The notes under the pieces were generated by a model that was not told the DNA's origin, did no database searches, and saw only the letters and a program-made list of their open reading frames with translations. Positions 2,606 to 34,933 of a stretch of DNA of 42,574 bases are shown here, in pieces (the stretch's first letter is position 1; every line of letters starts with the position of its first letter). Source of the stretch: a virus (Duplodnaviria; Heunggongvirae; Uroviricota; Caudoviricetes); the IMG/VR virus record IMGVR_UViG_2675903468_000002, positions 1 to 42,574 of that record, one strand, 5' to 3'. The translations under genes and the position numbers were made by a program.

Positions 2606-6007
<3,402 letters not shown>

Positions 6008-19557: not shown

Positions 19558-21477
19558 TTATCCTCCACTCAGAGCAGCCGCGATTTCTTCAATAGTCATT
19601 TCATCGTCGTCCTGTTCATCTCTTCTGGCGCGGGCCAGTGCATCCAGATCCAGTTGCCACCGCTGAACGGAAATGCGCAGCGCTGCATAGGCATACACCA
19701 GACAGTCCAGAGCTTCATTACGCCGTTTTCTGGCATCCCACTGGAGTTTCACCCGCCCGTTCACAACTTTTTCAACCAGCTCTTCTGCCACGAGTTGTTT
19801 AGCTTCAACATCAGAAAAAATGTCCGGGTTATCCGGAAAACGGAAGGTATACGGTGCGACTTCACTGGCAGATACCACCGGCAGGGCAAAACGCGCATAC
19901 AGCATTTCCTTGACGGTATCGGAACCCACCTCACACAAAAACACCCCACGCTGGTTTCGCTTTTTTGGCATGGTGATCACCGGCTTGCCGTACACCGACG
20001 CCCCTTTGATGGGGAGCACAAAAAAAGTGCCGTGTTTTCTGGATCGCTGATACACAATGTCCTGGTCAATACCACCGGTATCCCAGCAGACGCGGGAAAT
20101 GGAAATTTCAGTGCCATCTGCATGACGGTATTTTTTCCGGATCACGGCATCAACGCGTTTAAGGGTGTCCTCATCTTCCGGTCTCCCCATGATGATCTGC
20201 TTGTCAATCAGAAAAGCTTCTTCGCCAGGAGCCCAGCCCCAGACATAAATCTCATAACGGTTTTTCTGAGAGTCGATCCCTGCGGTCAGGTAAACCACCC
20301 GCAGGGGAACCTGCGCATCATAGTGGCAGACTTTTTCCAGCAATAACTCAAAGCTCAGTTTTTCTGCCACAGCCTCTTCATAAGGCTCCCCCAGCGTGGT
20401 GTTAATGAACGTCTTGACGCCATTCGGATCCTTCAGTGCATCAAGCCAGTCATAAACAATCTGTACCCAGGTGGTGAACGGGCTGTATGCCGTCCAGATG
20501 TGGTACGAGATTGAGCGCGGTGGCGGGATTTCCTCATCACCGGCGCTGTAAAATGTCAGACCGTCACGCGTCCACATCCCGGTATTGTCACAAATCCACC
20601 GCCCGTCGGTCTGGTCAAGTTCCGACTGACGGATCGCGCAGCCATTATGTTCACACAGGTAATACACCGTCTCCGGCTTGCCCTTCTCCCATTTCAGGCC
20701 AAAGGTTGTCGCATCATCGCCAAACTTCAGATACTGGGCTTCACCACAATGAGGGCATGGCACATAAAACCGCATAAAATGTGCAGATTCGTTCGCGGCT
20801 TTTTCAATCTGGCAAAAACCTTTAATTTTGGGCGTTGAGCCGCGTATGGATTTAGGCCATACCGAACCTTCGATACGCTTATCGCCAAGCAGAGTTGGTG
20901 AACCTTCTTTTTCCACATCCGGTTCAAACGAGGAGAGTTCGTCATAGCAGACCACATCCACAGATTTTTCACGGTAGTTTTTGGCAGCAGCTCCGCCCAG
21001 ACACCAGAATCCCACACCGGAGGAGAAACGTTTCAGGGTAAGCGTGTTGTCCCGATGTTTTCTGCCAAACCACGGAGCCAGCTCCAGTAATACAGGAACG
21101 TCTCTTATCGTTGGTTCGACATGGGATTTCATAAAATCTTCTGCCGCAGAATCTGTCGGCTGAAAAAGCAGGCTGTTACGGGATTTGTGTTCAATAAAAT
21201 AAGCCTCCACCCCCAACAGCATTTTGGTGTAACCAACACGCGCCGATTTAATCAGATTAACGGTGCGGATCCGGTCATTCCCCATGCTGTTCATGATGGC
21301 AACCTGAAACGGCAGTGTTTCCCATTGCCCGGGAGTATATGAAGACTCTTTTGGCAGATAATAATGCTGATCAGCCCACTGAACTGTCGTCAGTGGTACC
21401 GGAATATTGAGAGATACAAGCCCTGTTGCTATCGCACCGGCTGCATTAGCTGCCTTCTGTGCGTCTGAAATCATCAA
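19558..21477 (-). CDS. A: Terminase large subunit A
   Basis: 639 aa; [39 protein letters not shown] and the rest match lambda gpA along the whole length. Confidence 0.95.
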
Positions 21478-22200: not shown

Positions 22201-22859
22201 CGGAAGGACCCGCACAAATGAGAGCGTTTATCATTAACATTTACAGATAAGATGACGTACATCATTGAAACGCCATTCAGCCATATACCGGCAGCATTCG
22301 TAGTTGCACTCCGTAACTCTGCGACTAAGGTTAAAAACATGGCCCTCTTTTGCCACCGGCAAATCTTCAATGGATTTCCCCTGCCGGTTTTTTATTTTCG
22401 TCGATGCATAACATTGCATTTACATCAATAGCGGCTATTGTCATTAGTATGTTGCATCAATGCATGGGTGGTATTGGCGGTCTTCGCCGGCCGGTTCTGT
22501 GTAGCTGCTCCCTGTGACCGGTTTTTTATTTCTCACATTACAGCAGCCCCTTAGAGTGAAGGGCTGCTGTAATGCCTGTTACTCACGAATCAAACGAGCA
22601 TGCTGACCACTCATTTCAATGCGTAAGTATTGTGGCTTGCCGTCAATCAACGCGGTGGTTAACTTGTCACCTGTAGGTTTCCACATAATTTTCTCCTGTT
22701 TTAATGCCCCTTGCCGCCAGGCAGTTGATCAAAGTTCATCTTGATTCGGCAAGATTTAGAATGAATAAGATAAAATTGGCACACGCAGCAGAATTTCATG
22801 CTTTCCGGACGCCGGCGCATCCTTCATTTTTCAGCAAAATATTCTGCCATTTCAGTCGT

Positions 22860-23042
22860 TCAGTTATGCATACACTGTCGGACACCATTGACAATTTCAC
22901 AGACCTGAGAGGCAGCATCCAAAAGCTGACGCGCCCTATCCAGGCTGACGCATCCCGACAATAAAAAAGGCACCAGTATCGCTACCAGTGCCCATTTCGC
23001 CGCCGTTCGCGGCATTCTGTGTGTCCAGTGTTTTCGCGTCAT
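22860..23042 (-). CDS. Small putative lipoprotein (function unknown; possible lysis-associated or cargo gene)
   Basis: Candidate start MTRKHW (or MPRTAAK at 23015); classic lipoprotein signal KWALVAILVPFLLSGC followed by a ~29-aa mature part with two Cys; weak RBS. Confidence 0.4.
   Translation of the reverse strand: MTRKHWTHRMPRTAAKWALVAILVPFLLSGCVSLDRARQLLDAASQVCEIVNGVRQCMHN
22960..22992 (-). terminator. Terminator-like hairpin embedded in the lipoprotein signal-peptide coding region
   Basis: Minus strand GGCACUGGUA-GCGA-UACUGGUGCC (10-bp stem with two G-U pairs, GNRA-type loop) followed by UUUUUUAUUG. Confidence 0.45.
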
Positions 23043-23180
23043 ATCACCACTCACGATTTCAGAGCAACAATCAACTTTGCCATCCCATACAGCATCGGAG
23101 ACACGGCGATGCCAACCGCCACCCACTTAATGGCAAAAGCCACCGCCCGGATAAGGCAGAGATTCGCCGGATTTTCTGTC

Positions 23181-23333
23181 TTATCTACAAACATATGCTA
23201 TCGCTGCAACCGCGAAACCAATTGCCCCGATCATTGCCGATAATGCAAGAATAATTCCGGCAATATTTGCTGCTTTAGGTGTCATACTGCCCCCTATACT
23301 CAGAAAGGTTTTATTGTTATCCTTTACTTGCAT
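23181..23333 (-). CDS. Small single-pass membrane protein (~50 aa), function unknown
   Basis: MQVKDNNKTFLSIGGSMTPKAANIAGIILALSAMIGAIGFAVAAIAYVCR; GGAGA RBS 6 nt upstream; below the ORF-track length cutoff. Confidence 0.4.
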   Translation of the reverse strand: MQVKDNNKTFLSIGGSMTPKAANIAGIILALSAMIGAIGFAVAAIAYVCR

Positions 23334-23379
23334 GAATTATCTCCATGTCTGATATGCGTTTCTGATTTTGCCAAAATAC

Positions 23380-23418
23380 AACCCCGGACTGTTCCAGCAG
23401 CCGGGGTTTTGTTTTTTG
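23380..23418. terminator. Hairpin with flanking T-runs between the endolysin and the small membrane gene
   Basis: AACCCCGG-13 nt-CCGGGGTT followed by TTGTTTTTTG on plus strand; minus-strand reading gives a weaker GUAUUUUGG tract. Confidence 0.45.
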
Positions 23419-23510
23419 CCACCTGGCACTATTGCCCGAGCCTGCACCCATCGTAGCCCCAGAAAAGAGCCTGCATGAGTTGAGGGTGTTCAGCACTTCA
23501 GTGTCAGTTT

Positions 23511-24056
23511 TTAAACCACCACGCGCTCTTTCATCCAGCCATAGACAAACGACTCATTGGCCTCGCGTTTCTCTGCCAGCTCCAGATAACGCTCGCCCTG
23601 CGTACAGTTCAGGGCTTTCACCAGTACCAGTTCACCATCCCTGCTGCGATTTTTCAGATATGCCCGTAATGCATTAAGAGTACGCGGCCCGATGCGTCCA
23701 TCAGCATCCATATCCGGATAGAGTTTCCCGCGCAGGTTGAAAACGTTCAGCCAGCGCTGAAGCATTCTGGACGCCACAGTTGGCCCCATGTTCACGCCCG
23801 TATCGCACAACTCTGCGGCAATATCAGGAGACAGGTCCTCAACCTGGTCGAATCGTGGTCCGTACCAGTAGTCCGCCTCGAGTATTTCCAGCGCCTGCCC
23901 ACGCGTCAGGTCACGCATATCGCCCTGATAACCGTGTGCACGGGCAACTTTTTCAGTGATGCCCCATTTAGTCGGACCACCTTTATCATCCGGGTGATTG
24001 ACGTAACCGCCCTCTTTTCCCAGAATTTCGTCAAAAATTTCATCTTTCGACTTCAT
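23511..24056 (-). CDS. Endolysin, glycoside hydrolase family 108-like with peptidoglycan-binding C-terminus
   Basis: Start MKSKDEIFDEILGKEGGYVNHPDDKGGPTKWGIT is the characteristic GH108 N-terminus; sits directly downstream of the holin-like genes. The ORF-track start at 24077 is a TTG. Confidence 0.75.
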   Translation of the reverse strand: MKSKDEIFDEILGKEGGYVNHPDDKGGPTKWGITEKVARAHGYQGDMRDLTRGQALEILEADYWYGPRFDQVEDLSPDIAAELCDTGVNMGPTVASRMLQRWLNVFNLRGKLYPDMDADGRIGPRTLNALRAYLKNRSRDGELVLVKALNCTQGERYLELAEKREANESFVYGWMKERVVV

Positions 24057-24057
24057 A

Positions 24058-24336
24058 TCAGCGCCTTCGTAATACAAGGATTTTTGATACGTTCCCGCGT
24101 GCTCGTATCACCAGCACGCAGAACACCAGGTTAATCAGGACGACCAGCCAGTTACCGGGTGGAAAGCGACCACACAGATAACAAAGCGGCGCAAAGGCAT
24201 AAAGCAGCATCAGCAGCCAGGCCAGCCACGACATCAGCGGTTTATGTCTCGACTCACCACGACGATAAAAAAAGAGCGTCAGCACGATAACCGTGCTTAA
24301 CACCACATTCAGTAATCCGGGAAGGTTACTTAACAT
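24058..24336 (-). CDS. Membrane protein with ~3 TM segments between holin and endolysin (possible second holin or antiholin)
   Basis: 92 aa, hydrophobic (LLNVVLSTVIVLTLFF, LAWLLMLLYAFAPLCYL, LVVLINLVFCVLVI); overlaps both neighbours. Confidence 0.45.
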   Translation of the reverse strand: MLSNLPGLLNVVLSTVIVLTLFFYRRGESRHKPLMSWLAWLLMLLYAFAPLCYLCGRFPPGNWLVVLINLVFCVLVIRARGNVSKILVLRRR

Positions 24337-24715
24337 TACCGCCTCCCCCCCGCAGACGGGAGAACAGCCCGGATACCAGCGATGCGATATCCTGCTGGTG
24401 GATGAATGAGAGAATCTTCACCGACACCACCGATACCAGTACCGCGCAAAGCGCGTCGAGAGATGTGCTGTGGAGATTCAGTTTTTCAACCAGGTAAGAC
24501 GCCATCACATCCGCCCCCAGCACGCCAACAATGAACGACACCAGAAAATGCGCTGCCACACGCCAGACAGAAATCTGCTGTGGTATCGTGGCCACAAACA
24601 GCGCCCCTGCGAATGCACCAAACACAATCCCGAAATCCGTTCCGGTAAACAGCCCGAATACCGTCGCCCCACCGAGCGCCGCAGCCGTGCCGGAACCGGA
24701 TAAGGGTTCAGACAT
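24326..24715 (-). CDS. Putative holin
   Basis: Start MSEPLSGSG with AGGAGA RBS; several Gly/Ala-rich TM helices; immediately upstream of the lysis membrane protein and endolysin. Confidence 0.55.
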   Translation of the reverse strand: MSEPLSGSGTAAALGGATVFGLFTGTDFGIVFGAFAGALFVATIPQQISVWRVAAHFLVSFIVGVLGADVMASYLVEKLNLHSTSLDALCAVLVSVVSVKILSFIHQQDIASLVSGLFSRLRGGGGNVK

Positions 24716-24951
24716 ACTTTTTCTCCTGTCAATAAAAAGGGCCACCAGCGGCCCGTAAAAAACACCCTGTCAAAGGTACCCGCAGATGCCTTTTGTTTGG
24801 TGTTATTCATATTTGTGCAGTAAAGGCCAGAGAACGACCATCACCATCGCCACCAGCACGCCATCAGCCAGCACCGACATCAGCCGTCCGGTAAAATCCA
24901 CTGCCACTACCAGAAACAGCAGGATGGCAGCCAGCACAAGGCGCGCACTTT

Positions 24952-25377
24952 TCACAGGTACTGCTCCAGCGGCAACTGCAGCGCCTGCGCAATTTTCTTG
25001 AGCTGTGCTTCTTCATCCGGACCAATGCCATCCTGGTCTGCAATATCCAGACACAGGCACAGCACATCAACCGCTTCGGCGGTTCCTGCCACATCAGCCA
25101 GTTCTCGCAAAGCCTGAGCATTCGCACTACGAGGCGATGCTTCATAACGGGCGCGGATATTCGCGCTCATCTGGGCAATCTCACCGGAGAACGGCGCAAA
25201 GGCAGGAAGTGTTGCAATGGTTTTCTCCAGTACCGCAATTTCTTTCGCGTCACAGGTGTCGTCAGCGTATGCAATGGAATACGCGCCCCAGACGGTCGCC
25301 TCCACCGCGTCGCGGTTCTCCATTTTCTTCACTTCAGTAATAGCCTTACGGGTTTTCTTTTTGAAAATACCAAACAT
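24952..25377 (-). CDS. TerB-like (tellurite-resistance TerB fold) protein
   Basis: Start MFGIFKKKTRKAITEVKKMENRDAVEA; helical acidic protein resembling the TerB domain family, assigned from recalled sequence features only. Confidence 0.4.
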   Translation of the reverse strand: MFGIFKKKTRKAITEVKKMENRDAVEATVWGAYSIAYADDTCDAKEIAVLEKTIATLPAFAPFSGEIAQMSANIRARYEASPRSANAQALRELADVAGTAEAVDVLCLCLDIADQDGIGPDEEAQLKKIAQALQLPLEQYL

Positions 25378-25576
25378 CGTGACTTTTCCTTTTAGTGGGT
25401 GAGCCTCGCCCCGGGATGAGCAGCCCACAGAGAAAGTCACACTGACCATCCCGTAAGCTCCCCCCCCTGAAAGGCTCTGTGGTTTTTTGATGTGCGCCGG
25501 GCGTGGCGCAGATATGAAAAAGGCCACGCACGTGCGCAGCCTGATAATTTTCTGAATCAGCGGAGTGTCAGCTGGT

Positions 25577-26104
25577 TTACCCTTTCACTTCTGAAAGGGA
25601 TTTTTTGCCAAACGTCACTTCATTCATTGACATAAGTATGCTGTCTTTAATGTATTCGCACACTTCATTAATTTTTGCGTTGGTATCCACATGCGAAAAT
25701 GTCCTGGCCTGATAACCATCAACCGAAATCGTCATGTTGTCGCCATCAAGTAACAGAATACTCACTGTAATATTCACACTTACAGACTGGCGGGGATCAT
25801 CATCAACAACCGTATATAAATTAAAAGTAACCCCATCCTGAAAATCTACCTGCAAATCCTCCGGTTTCTCACAACAACTATCATGAGAAAGATAAACATA
25901 GGGATGGGAGTTACCGTCAATATCCAGCCATCGTGGTTTCGGCAATGCCAGTGAGTCTTCATAGGTCTTGACCAGCCTTTTTGCCATATCCCGCAGTCGC
26001 TGGATGTACTCCTGTCTGGCCTCCTGAATTTCAGCCTGCTTTTCCCGAATGTCTGCATATGTGATCACAGTCTCAATTCTCCTGTATACAGAAAAATAAA
26101 CCAT
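25577..26104 (-). CDS. Hypothetical protein (function unknown)
   Basis: ORF whose upstream part (26105-26200) contains a terminator, so start set at ATG 26104; alternative GTG at 26068 has an AGGAGA RBS. Confidence 0.5.
   Translation of the reverse strand: MVYFSVYRRIETVITYADIREKQAEIQEARQEYIQRLRDMAKRLVKTYEDSLALPKPRWLDIDGNSHPYVYLSHDSCCEKPEDLQVDFQDGVTFNLYTVVDDDPRQSVSVNITVSILLLDGDNMTISVDGYQARTFSHVDTNAKINEVCEYIKDSILMSMNEVTFGKKSLSEVKG
25579..25606 (+). terminator. Strong plus-strand intrinsic terminator overlapping the 3' end of a minus-strand gene
   Basis: CCCTTTCA-CTTC-TGAAAGGG followed by ATTTTTTG on plus strand; no U-tract in the minus orientation. Confidence 0.5.
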
Positions 26105-26163
26105 AATAATAGCCAACCGGGAAAAGATGAAAAATGCCATAACAGAACAGGCATTGCGCACGG

Positions 26164-26191
26164 ATAAAAAAATGCCCGTCATGAGACGGGC
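26164..26191 (-). terminator. Intrinsic terminator (minus strand)
   Basis: GCCCGTC-TCAT-GACGGGC followed by ATTTTTTTATCC on minus strand. Confidence 0.6.
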
Positions 26192-26748
26192 CCAAAGCAT
26201 TCATCGTATAAGAATTAGACAGCGTTTAATTGTATGGTTACTACCAGAATGATTCGTCAGCCTGCAACGTAATTCTGACGAATCACAGACCCCGAAACAG
26301 GCAGCGACTCATTCTGATAAAAACCATCCGATGATACACAACGTTAACAATGTAAAAAACAGCACCGAAACTGTAATCAGTCAGATATTACAGAATGAAG
26401 AACGACAAAGGCGCTTGCAAAACCTGTTCTCCGCGAAACTCGCCAGTGCTGAAACGATATGCCTCATTTGTTTACCAGTGCGGGTAGCAGAAATTACCCT
26501 CACACATAAAATGCTGACTTCCGGAATCACACTGCTGACCGGTTATTACTGAATCAACAAACTGATCACCAGGAAGTCAGCACTGACCTTTCCGGTGGTA
26601 TTAACACCCTGTGAACACAAAACGACCACCTTTAGGTCGTCACAAATACTAACAATGATTGTGTGGGCATCAAAAATATATTTGGTGTTCAGTTTTAAAT
26701 ATGTGTATACATCTGTATCAGAAATATACAACTTATATCATCACTGAA

Positions 26749-28143: not shown

Positions 28144-28650
28144 GTCTTTTTCCCTTTTCCGGTTAACGTGACATACCAATAACTCTTGTCGAAAAAGCCA
28201 GCAAGCTGAAAGACCGGTATTCGTAACCACCAGCACGTTTAACGTCCTGTGCCGTTTTTCGGGTACAAAAAACAGCCCGACGGCGGTTTTAAGGAAGGAG
28301 TCGAAGCAACCACTCTTAACATCATAATTGAATTTTTACGTACGTAAACCACAAATACGCCACTCAAATGTTAATGCTCTATAACAAAACCAAACATGCG
28401 AATAACACATATTACACCAAATACATCATTGTTATTTTTCAATGAAAAATGAGTAAATAATGTATTTCATTAATTAAATTCCGCATTACACAAAAATATC
28501 GACAAATTACACCAACGCGCATAAATGAGATCTTGATCATATTATCAATCACTAAATTAAACTTGCCTCTTGAAATAACCACATTGATTAGATGAATATT
28601 TATCGCGCAGTGACATCATTTTTTAAAATAGTTCAAAAAAAGGGTTCGTG

Positions 28651-29760
28651 ATGAAAAAATTAACGGTGGCAATTTCTGCTGTGGCTGCATCAGTATCAGT
28701 ACTGATGGCGATGTCTGCTCAGGCAGCAGAGATTTATAATAAAGACAGCAACAAGTTGGATCTGTACGGAAAAGTTAATGCTAAGCACTACTTCTCCTCT
28801 AACGATGCAAATGATGGCGACACAACTTATGCTCGTCTGGGTTTCAAAGGCGAAACTCAGATCAACGATCAACTGACTGGTTTCGGTCAGTGGGAATATG
28901 AATTCAAAGGAAACCGTACTGAAGAACAGGGAGCAGCCAAAGATAAAACCCGTCTTGCATTTGCAGGGCTTAAATTCGGTGACTACGGCTCCGTCGATTA
29001 CGGTCGTAACTACGGTGTAGCATACGATATCGGTGCATGGACTGACGTTCTGCCAGAATTCGGTGGAGATACTTGGACCCAAACAGATGTATTCATGACT
29101 GGTCGCACCACTGGTGTTGCAACTTATCGTAACAACGACTTCTTTGGTCTGGTTGATGGTCTGAATTTTGCTGCACAGTACCAGGGTAAGAATAATCATG
29201 ATCGTAGTAGCTTAGATAACTACACCAAAGGCAATGGCGATGGTTTTGGTTTCTCTGCGACCTATGAATACGAAGGTTTCGGCATTGGTGCAACGTATGC
29301 GAAATCTGATCGTACCGACACTCAAGTCAAATTGGGTAAACTTCTCCCAGGAGTATTTGCTTCCGGCGAAAATGCAGAAGTCTGGGCTGCAGGTCTGAAA
29401 TACGACGCAAACAACGTTTATCTGGCAACAACCTATTCAGAAACCCAGAATATGACTAAATTCGCAGATTACTTTGTGGCTAATAAAGCACAAAACTTCG
29501 AAGCTGTTGCACAATATCAGTTCGATTTCGGTCTGCGTCCGTCTGTTGCTTATCTGCAATCAAAAGGTAAAGATCTTGGCATTTTTGGTGACCAAGATTT
29601 AGTCAAATATGTTGATGTTGGCGCAACTTATTATTTCAACAAAAATATGTCTACATTCGTTGATTACAAAATCAACCTGCTTGACAAAAATGACTTTACT
29701 AAAGCTCTTGGTGTAAACACTGACGATATCGTTGCTGTAGGTATGGTATACCAGTTCTAA
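28651..29760 (+). CDS. nmpC: Outer membrane porin, NmpC/Lc/OmpC family (phage-encoded)
   Basis: [25 protein letters not shown] signal peptide then [24 protein letters not shown]...ending VGMVYQF; trimeric-porin hallmarks; closely matches recalled DLP12 NmpC; opposite strand to Q and lysis genes as in DLP12. Confidence 0.95.
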
Positions 29761-29940: not shown

Positions 29941-30324
29941 TTAATTAAGCTTAGTAACATCAATATCCATCTCTAAGCAAATGTCTAATGCCATTAACAT
30001 ACCTTCGATTATTCCCTCTGCTTTCTGTAACCTTTTCCCGATATACCCATCAGAGCAATTATGCTTCCGCGCCAGCATCATAAACGTCATCCCACCAACA
30101 TAATAATCCACCAGCAAATCATGTAAGCCATTGTTGCTCTTTTTCAGACAGGCCATACATCCACAAATGATCATCGCGTCATCGTCACAGCATTGCGGAC
30201 GAGATCTTACTTTTGAAGGAATTAATCCCTTAAAACCGGCGGCAACGGACGACCAGGTCACATCTTCATGATTATTAGCCGCCCACGCTCCCCAACGCTC
30301 AAGAACCATCTGAATATCACGCAT
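29941..30324 (-). CDS. Q: Late-gene antiterminator Q (phage 82 / DLP12 QuuD type)
   Basis: 127 aa, [24 protein letters not shown]...[18 protein letters not shown]; matches recalled QuuD; located just upstream of the porin, as quuD-nmpC in DLP12. Confidence 0.85.
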
Positions 30325-34658: not shown

Positions 34659-34781
34659 GCTTTCCACGACCTTATTGGTGGTGAGACGTACAGGGGTGGA
34701 AATACCGGTCACCAAAGAACCCGGCCCAACCGAAGTTGGCCCTGCACGCCCCACCATAATTTGGGCGTAATGCTGCTCATG

Positions 34782-34808
34782 ACACAAAAAAACCGCAAGA
34801 GCGCGGTT
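34782..34808 (-). terminator. Intrinsic terminator downstream of the Lar-like gene
   Basis: Minus strand AACCGC-GCUCUU-GCGGUU followed by UUUUUUUGUG. Confidence 0.6.
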
Positions 34809-34933
34809 GTGCGCTTTGGTGAATTCCGGGTTTCCACGCCCGGCACCCGCTTTATAAGGTGCTGGAATAGTGTAACGTCCCGAAATTGCAGAATCAATAT
34901 GTTGGTTGCGGATCATTTTGTACCTACTCGCCG

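Follow-up and report, generated by a model that had tools for sequence, protein, structure and literature searches.

The signal peptide of a small lysis-cassette lipoprotein in a lambdoid prophage is best explained by dual use of its codons, which would also carry an intrinsic-terminator-type element within a Q-dependent late operon; we put the probability of this reading slightly below 0.6. The 40 nt encoding residues K16 to L28 consist of an A-tract, an 11-bp hairpin with a GNRA loop and a U-tract, which is the anatomy of a Rho-independent terminator. To judge from substitutions among relatives, an RNA layer appears to be selected here in addition to the protein. Selection on both layers would leave the signal peptide nearly frozen in its amino acids as well as in its synonymous bases. 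The features needed below are given by their position in the window (the whole stretch of DNA that was analyzed, 42,574 nt).

29941-30324, minus: Q antiterminator gene (PF06530, E = 5.5e-52)
24058-24745, minus: two holin genes, Phage_holin_8 (24745-24326) and Phage_holin_3_7 (24336-24058)
23511-24077, minus: GH108/PG_binding_3 endolysin gene (Pfam), upstream gene in the cassette
23373-23411, both strands: terminator-like palindrome, bidirectional and flanked by A- and U-tracts, just past the endolysin gene
23051-23333, minus: two single-TMD ORFs of 50 and 47 aa, between endolysin and lipoprotein
22860-23042, minus: 60-codon lipoprotein gene (phrog_7528, phiP27-type predicted "o-spanin"), its protein beginning MTRKHWTHRMPRTAAKWALVAILVPFLLSGC
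22995-22998, minus: GAAA upstream of the stem (5'-GAAAU), complementary to the U-tract and extending the helix in folds
22968-22993, minus: terminator-type stem-loop GGGCACUGGUA-GCGA-UACUGGUGCCU, 11-bp stem
22979-22982, minus: GNRA tetraloop GCGA, the hairpin loop
22959-22967, minus: U-tract UUUUUAUUG, last base of Pro25 and the codons for Phe26, Leu27 and Leu28
22950-22961, minus: lipobox L-S-G-C, codons 28-31, Cys31 being the predicted lipidation site

Anatomy and genome setting of the hairpin

The window holds a lambdoid prophage in reverse orientation, with genes for an integrase, a CI-like repressor, a DnaB-like helicase, Q, a porin moron and a DNA methylase, followed by a TerB-like gene, the two holins, the GH108 endolysin, the lipoprotein, Nu1- and gpA-type terminase genes and the structural genes. 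The presence of Q upstream places the lysis and structural genes in an antitermination-dependent late operon, and the hairpin is located ~6.9 kb into it, between the lysis and packaging genes. Another ORF considered as Q, 25577-26200, had no Pfam match and was discarded in favor of the gene at 29941-30324. The original prediction placed the hairpin at the end of the lysis operon. The lipoprotein gene is indeed the last of the lysis cassette, but the hairpin lies inside that gene, and the cassette occupies the middle of a late operon that continues into terminase and structural genes.

On the minus strand, positions 23000-22955 read GCGAAAU-GGGCACUGGUA-GCGA-UACUGGUGCCU-UUUUUAUUGUCGG. Hairpin and U-tract together occupy nt 50-84 (35 bases) of the lipoprotein ORF (23042-22860, minus), that is, codons 17-28, which encode WALVAILVPFLL; the hairpin alone spans nt 50-75, and the U-tract reaches nt 84. 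The 11-bp stem contains two internal G-U pairs and is closed by a third. The 10-bp stem described originally is correct when this closing pair is left out (22992-22969) and becomes 11 bp (22993-22968) when it is counted; six U residues follow the shorter version, the first of them being the partner in the closing G-U pair of the longer one. Apart from this, the minus-strand hairpin with a GCGA loop and a U-tail on signal-peptide codons was confirmed by the sequence, by folding and by a terminator scan that found the site independently (11 pairs, 5 of them G-C, loop of 4).

The predicted folding energy of the 41-nt RNA segment is -16.1 kcal/mol (z = -3.8), a stability equalled by 1 of 200 dinucleotide shuffles, while none of 200 shuffles equalled a longer, 101-nt segment (z = -3.65). 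Sense (minus-strand) RNA folds at -17.9 kcal/mol versus -9.1 kcal/mol for the antisense (plus-strand) RNA, in which G-U pairs become A-C mismatches and so weaken the fold; the structure is therefore a feature of the sense-strand RNA. Intrinsic terminators combine a G+C stem of ~5-14 bp and a 3-8 nt loop with a U-rich tract directly 3' of the stem on the transcribed strand, at a sense-strand site in a transcription unit. The hairpin has such a stem and loop, the U-tract follows it directly, and the strand is shared with the holin, endolysin and terminase genes. A scan of the whole 42.6-kb window returned 19 hairpin-plus-T-tail sites at -10 kcal/mol or below, and among those on the sense strand of the late operon the signal-peptide hairpin ranked second in stability. 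Rfam had no match at the hairpin, whether the entire window was searched with gathering thresholds or 22600-23600 with E values up to 5.

Several other terminator-like hairpins are present in the late operon, most of them intergenic. Sense-strand hairpins with U-tracts lie just past large structural genes (14692-14674, 12145-12128, 2588-2569 and 1913-1892, minus), which fits lambdoid late operons being rich in intra-operon terminators or stabilizers; further terminator-like hairpins were seen at 25541-25522 and 24754-24739. The palindrome behind the endolysin gene (-15.1 kcal/mol on the minus strand, -19.1 kcal/mol on the plus strand) precedes the 50-aa and 47-aa ORFs. These ORFs are absent from the Yersinia arrangement and from others in which the lipoprotein gene abuts the endolysin gene, and the palindrome together with the small-ORF segment looks like an insertion between the two.

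Some other genes and RNAs of the prophage and its relatives are recorded here for completeness. The TerB-like gene (24952-25527, minus) lies directly upstream of the holins and recurs in loci L246, L248, L250 and L251. Between Q and the lysis genes, on the opposite strand, there is a full-length Gram-negative porin gene (28648-29760, plus; PF00267, E = 8e-152), which is a moron within the late operon. Gathering-level Rfam matches to C4 antisense RNA (RF01695, 83.6 bits) and the isrK Hfq-binding RNA (RF01394, 67 bits) lie side by side at 34674-34862 (minus), in the early/replication region. In locus L256, LT-II-type enterotoxin genes (Enterotoxin_a, LT-IIB; 3432-4575) separate Nu1 from the lipoprotein gene, which makes the gap between lysis cassette and terminase a site of cargo insertion.

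The lipoprotein gene and the spanin question

Conservation marks the 60-codon ORF as a true gene for a small lipoprotein, the last gene of a holin-holin-endolysin lysis cassette. Its product matches phrog_7528 over residues 1-60 of 60 (E = 9e-36), a homologue carries a PGAP CDS annotation, and homologues form 116 protein clusters from E. coli, Salmonella, Yersinia and Citrobacter; Pfam and NCBIfam have no family that matches it. The ORF is intact, with neither frameshift nor stop, in the ~240 loci that were fetched (80 unique nucleotide sequences). The pN/pS ratio is 0.25, and Fitch parsimony counted 73, 68 and 184 changes at first, second and third codon positions outside the hairpin. The scan of species-representative genomes for lipoprotein loci yielded only 2, and the viral scan with P0123 yielded zero loci.

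The N terminus has the layout of a lipoprotein signal peptide: a positively charged n-region (R3, K4, R9, R12, K16), the h-region WALVAILVPFLL and a lipobox, L-S-G-C, of the general form [LVI][ASTVI][GAS]C. Invariant residues include G30, the lipobox cysteine C31, C48 and C57; lipobox position 29 varies (S, V, A or G), so that relatives read L-V/A/G-G-C. An N-terminal W-T-H-R motif is also invariant, and H-W-T-H-R nearly so. The codons of the latter (CACTGGACACACAGA; codons 5-9, 23028-23014, minus) likewise show little synonymous change, and they repeat the CACUGG of the 5' arm of the hairpin. We take the first ATG as the start because the second Met is often replaced by Thr, Ile or Val.

In the loci of relatives, the gene invariably comes next after the endolysin gene and shares its strand. 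Its partners form three holin/endolysin combinations, drawn from Phage_holin_8 and Phage_holin_3_7 with a GH108 or M15 endolysin and Phage_holin_3_1 with M15 or GH108, and it is followed by several unrelated terminase modules. Homology among loci begins ~8 nt before the lipoprotein ATG, placing the gene at a mosaic boundary. The endolysin stop often overlaps the lipoprotein start in an ATGA, as in the Yersinia locus, L242 and L254, an arrangement that suggests translational coupling. At the other end, ~75 nt 3' of the lipoprotein stop (22780-22860, minus) accompany the gene across contexts. A G+C hairpin at ~22822-22807 (minus; GGAUGCGCCGGCGUCC), whose sequence differs among relatives, lacks a U-tract and is thus not a canonical terminator; a possible small Cys-rich ORF (MKFCCVCQ...) follows it.

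Taken with the synonymous-site constraint on the hairpin described below, this coding conservation bears on the original prediction, which saw in the overlap a direct conflict that would decide whether the gene is real. That framing finds no support, because coding and RNA structure are not mutually exclusive: the gene is clearly conserved as coding sequence, and the hairpin carries extra synonymous constraint. The prediction had also allowed that the DNA might be both, and it is this option that the two kinds of conservation fit.

The homologue in phage phiP27 (20706-20861) was named an o-spanin by Kongari et al., 2018 (PMC6139136, supplementary file 5). It belongs to the same protein family and is a 51-codon version of the window ORF. 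The phiP27-type "o-spanin", described as part of a separated two-component spanin and as a singleton family, is a small lipoprotein adjoining the endolysin, as is the protein studied here. Unlike the published phiP27 pairing, however, the window offers no i-spanin candidate, and the mature part of its lipoprotein is only ~30 residues long. The published phiP27 "i-spanin" (20348-20542) has no PHROG match, and on the opposite strand it is overlapped by a 90-aa ORF with a match to phrog_36812 (E = 5e-20), so it looks like an antisense artefact when the frames of phiP27 locus L001 are compared:

2759-3031, minus: 90-aa ORF
2775-2969, plus: published "i-spanin"
3057-3212, plus: lipoprotein region

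The product is thus a predicted outer-membrane lipoprotein encoded in a lysis cassette, as an o-spanin would be, but neither the window nor the minimal cassettes have a cognate i-spanin gene adjacent to it, overlapping it or embedding it. The neighboring single-TMD ORFs of 47-50 aa have almost no periplasmic tail, and in the minimal cassettes nothing lies between endolysin and lipoprotein. As there is no credible i-spanin partner, we call the product a lysis-cassette lipoprotein and doubt that it belongs to the spanin family. The family may do without an i-spanin and would then be a candidate stand-alone outer-membrane lysis factor. A lysis-cassette lipoprotein that apparently lacks an i-spanin is relevant to the way in which "spanin-less" phages break through the outer membrane. 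The locus also holds a caution for annotation pipelines: the RefSeq CDS of phiP27 (L32) crosses the hairpin in the wrong frame and misses the lipoprotein ORF.

Constraint on the hairpin in close and distant relatives

Among the 80 unique sequences, pairwise synonymous diversity was 0.029 in codons 17-26 versus 0.258 elsewhere in the gene, a ninefold drop. Parsimony placed 6 third-position changes over the nine degenerate hairpin sites versus a mean of 4.1 per site elsewhere (resampling p = 2.5e-5; Mann-Whitney p = 9.5e-4), which makes this the lowest contiguous window of the ORF. The conserved island is bounded by the upstream A-tract and the U-tract. Among the codons fixed within it are ATA, which is rare, and GTA and CCT, which are uncommon. 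The TTT of Phe26 never becomes TTC; the CCT of Pro25 was altered once; and the first 5-6 U of the U-tract are invariant, ORF position 81 being A, U, C or G.

Substitutions in the stem were almost all pair-preserving transitions (C-G to U-G, A-U to G-U, G-U to G-C or A-U). None of the 47 close sequence variants has lost the stem (99.6% of cells are paired), and the pairs between the upstream GAAA and the U-tract also remained standard; in some relatives pairing of A-tract and U-tract lengthens the helix to 8 + 11 bp (19 bp). Loop variants in close relatives (GCGA, GUGA, GCAA) are all GNRA. When the peptide was randomly recoded with synonymous codons, a terminator-like hairpin of native stability arose in 0.07% of cases with E. 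coli codon usage (an approximate table) and in 0.4% with uniform usage; a weak hairpin (-8 kcal/mol or below) with a T-rich tail arose in ~20%. At the protein level, the h-region is the most conserved stretch of the lipoprotein. The h-region of a signal peptide is usually fast-evolving and the least conserved segment of a secreted protein.

Other sources of constraint were considered and set aside. The antisense ORFs that overlap the region (22704-22964 and 22988-23254, plus) fail to span the hairpin, an ORF in the +1 frame continues into a zone of high synonymous variation, and selection of rare codons for export does not suit a set of fixed codons that also includes the commonest (CTG, GTG, GCG).

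An index-free HMMER search yielded 22 cluster representatives, and the DNA of eight distant lineages was compared at the position of the hairpin.

L261: GGCACUGGUA-ACCU-UACUGGUGCC followed by UUUUUUA
L262: GGGCGCUGGUA-AUGA-UGCUGGUGCCC followed by UUUUUG
L265: GGGCACUCACA-UUAA-UGUUGGUGCCU followed by UUUUUA, with two compensatory pairs (G-C to A-U, U-A to C-G)
L267: 10-bp stem and U-tract retained
L263: U-tract retained, two mismatches in the stem
L258: 7-bp hairpin without an adjacent U-tract, lambdoid context
L256: no hairpin, gene retained, lambdoid context
L254: neither hairpin nor U-tract, h-region unrelated (CVLALFLMMLLPVGC)

Thus L261, L262, L265 and L267 retain hairpin and U-tract while their h-region peptides differ, and in these lineages the native codons beat 97.6-99.8% of synonymous recodings (0.2-2.4% match them). 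L254 is Mu-like, with GemA and Mor upstream and no Q gene within the stretch read; loss of a terminator is expected where antitermination is absent, a point that comes from this one lineage. We claim no support from covariation, since the 47 close variants contain no double-sided changes and the two found in the distant set, both in L265, are not significant against shuffles (57 of 500 do as well).

Alternative explanations and known systems

One alternative is a purely coding account, in which a conserved hydrophobic peptide (an LV...LV repeat and PFLL) happens to produce the hairpin and the RNA has no function of its own. There is something to it: CUGGU...CUGGU can self-pair through G-U, PFLL calls for U-rich codons, a fifth or so of recodings form a weak hairpin with a T-rich tail, close relatives lack compensatory changes, and two relatives keep the gene without the hairpin. 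Yet it leaves the ninefold synonymous drop, the fixation of rare codons and the 0.07-0.4% recoding probability unexplained, the hairpin persists where the peptide has changed, and the h-region would be oddly the most conserved part of the protein, so we regard this account as quite improbable. The opposite extreme, an open frame running across a 3' UTR rather than a gene, has in its favor that the phiP27 annotation omits the ORF and calls another frame, and that no Pfam or NCBIfam family matches; it is scarcely tenable given an ORF intact in ~240 loci with a pN/pS of 0.25 and a third-position excess, the invariant lipobox Cys and two further Cys, the conserved HWTHR, the ATGA overlap and the full-length PHROG match.

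A selected RNA structure that is not a terminator is possible, if unlikely. It could block 3' exonucleases and thereby stabilize the holin-endolysin message upstream, or it could be a processing site (the extended helix of 15-19 bp resembles an RNase III-like substrate) or a means of slowing translation that tunes lipoprotein output or export. Synonymous constraint and strand specificity count equally for it, the U-tract pairs with the A-tract in several relatives (8 + 11 bp), the hairpin of L258 persists without an adjacent U-tract, and other hairpins of the late operon follow genes for abundant proteins, as mRNA stabilizers do. Against it, the U-tract is itself conserved at synonymous sites (TTT never TTC, CCT almost fixed) and kept in L261, L262, L263, L265 and L267, which argues against a pure stabilizer or pause site, as neither needs a U-tract; moreover, every measurable anatomical feature is that of a canonical terminator. 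Near-invariant, non-covarying arms, and the position of the gene at a mosaic boundary where homology begins ~8 nt ahead of the ATG, might suggest an element that acts as DNA, either a palindrome bound by a protein or a conserved joint at which phage modules recombine. We consider it very unlikely: as DNA the palindrome is imperfect, G-U becoming A-C on the other strand; the module boundary is the start codon, not the hairpin; L262 and L265 keep the element with changed sequence; and four-gamete incompatibility is 0.52 across the hairpin (30-90 nt) against 0.44-0.62 within the flanks, so it is pervasive, not enriched at the hairpin, and indicates no special recombination joint.

We therefore return to dual use of the sequence, with the hairpin probably functional as a terminator-type RNA element; termination there we infer from its anatomy alone. 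A polymerase that is not Q-modified, or that has no ribosome close behind it, would terminate at the hairpin or leave a stable, protected 3' end; such polymerases could derive from spurious or lysogen-state transcription from upstream morons, or have become uncoupled from translation. In the presumed ancestral ATGA arrangement the site would lie ~80 nt beyond the endolysin stop codon. A Q-modified late polymerase would read through, possibly aided by a coupled ribosome translating the ORF, allowing the genes for the lipoprotein, packaging and structural proteins to be expressed. A lipoprotein start that overlaps or abuts the endolysin stop leaves no intergenic space, which is probably why the element is intragenic, and the tolerant signal-peptide region would be the first place able to hold a hairpin. 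Counted against this model are the two lambdoid relatives that have weakened or lost the element (L258, L256), and only one lineage serves as its Mu-like control. Recognition of a specific sequence, rather than structure, could also explain why both arms are nearly invariant; the benefit of halting transcription within a lysis gene is not obvious; and a search of the literature gave no published 3'-end data attributable to this lysis module.

The order of events may also have been the reverse, an idea that we hold to be unlikely. The hairpin and U-tract would then be the original 3' terminator of the holin-endolysin unit, with the signal peptide overprinted on it, since Ala, Leu and Val are encoded by codons of the stem, and Phe and Leu by the U-tract. 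The RNA element would now dictate the peptide and act as a Q- and ribosome-gated terminator separating lysis from packaging transcripts.

The element occurs widely in E. coli: 825 of 5,426 complete genomes gave a match to the 571-bp stretch that surrounds the gene, although some of these matches cover only the neighboring 47-aa ORF. An RNA element that freezes the sequence of a signal peptide cautions against reading signal-peptide conservation as protein-level constraint. Because the site is intragenic, synonymous mutations can separate its RNA role from its protein role.

Functional RNA hairpins that overlap coding sequence are familiar from RNA phages, where the MS2 operator hairpin overlaps the replicase start and likewise constrains codon choice. 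Hairpins of the MS2 type are translational operators of RNA phages, whereas the one described here is a terminator-type element in a dsDNA prophage.

Closer in geometry are the attenuators of pyrBI, with its leader pyrL, and of pyrE/rph, in which the terminator hairpin lies within or just after a translated frame and a ribosome coupled to RNA polymerase suppresses the intrinsic terminator by blocking hairpin formation (PMC5021804). The present hairpin (ORF nt 50-75) also lies within a translated ORF near its start. The leader peptide of the pyrBI type is dispensable, whereas here the frame encodes the N terminus of a functional lipoprotein, there is no known metabolic signal, and coupling is only proposed.

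The nearest counterparts are the late terminators of lambdoid phages themselves. Late transcription in these phages requires antitermination (PMC7547250), and terminators within their late operons are often predicted and have been documented, their role being described as unknown and suggested to be partial attenuation or the blocking of spurious transcription (PMC8022706). Lambda tR' and the sites downstream of it, as well as the predicted terminators of P22 and phage L, are likewise sense-strand hairpins with a U-tract downstream of Q, and the same roles have been proposed for them, stopping non-antiterminated transcription or attenuating it partially (PMC8022706, PMC7547250). Those terminators are intergenic, whereas the element in the window lies inside a translated ORF, over an h-region, with purifying selection on synonymous sites; what is new relative to the known intra-operon late terminators is that it is intragenic and dual-coding.
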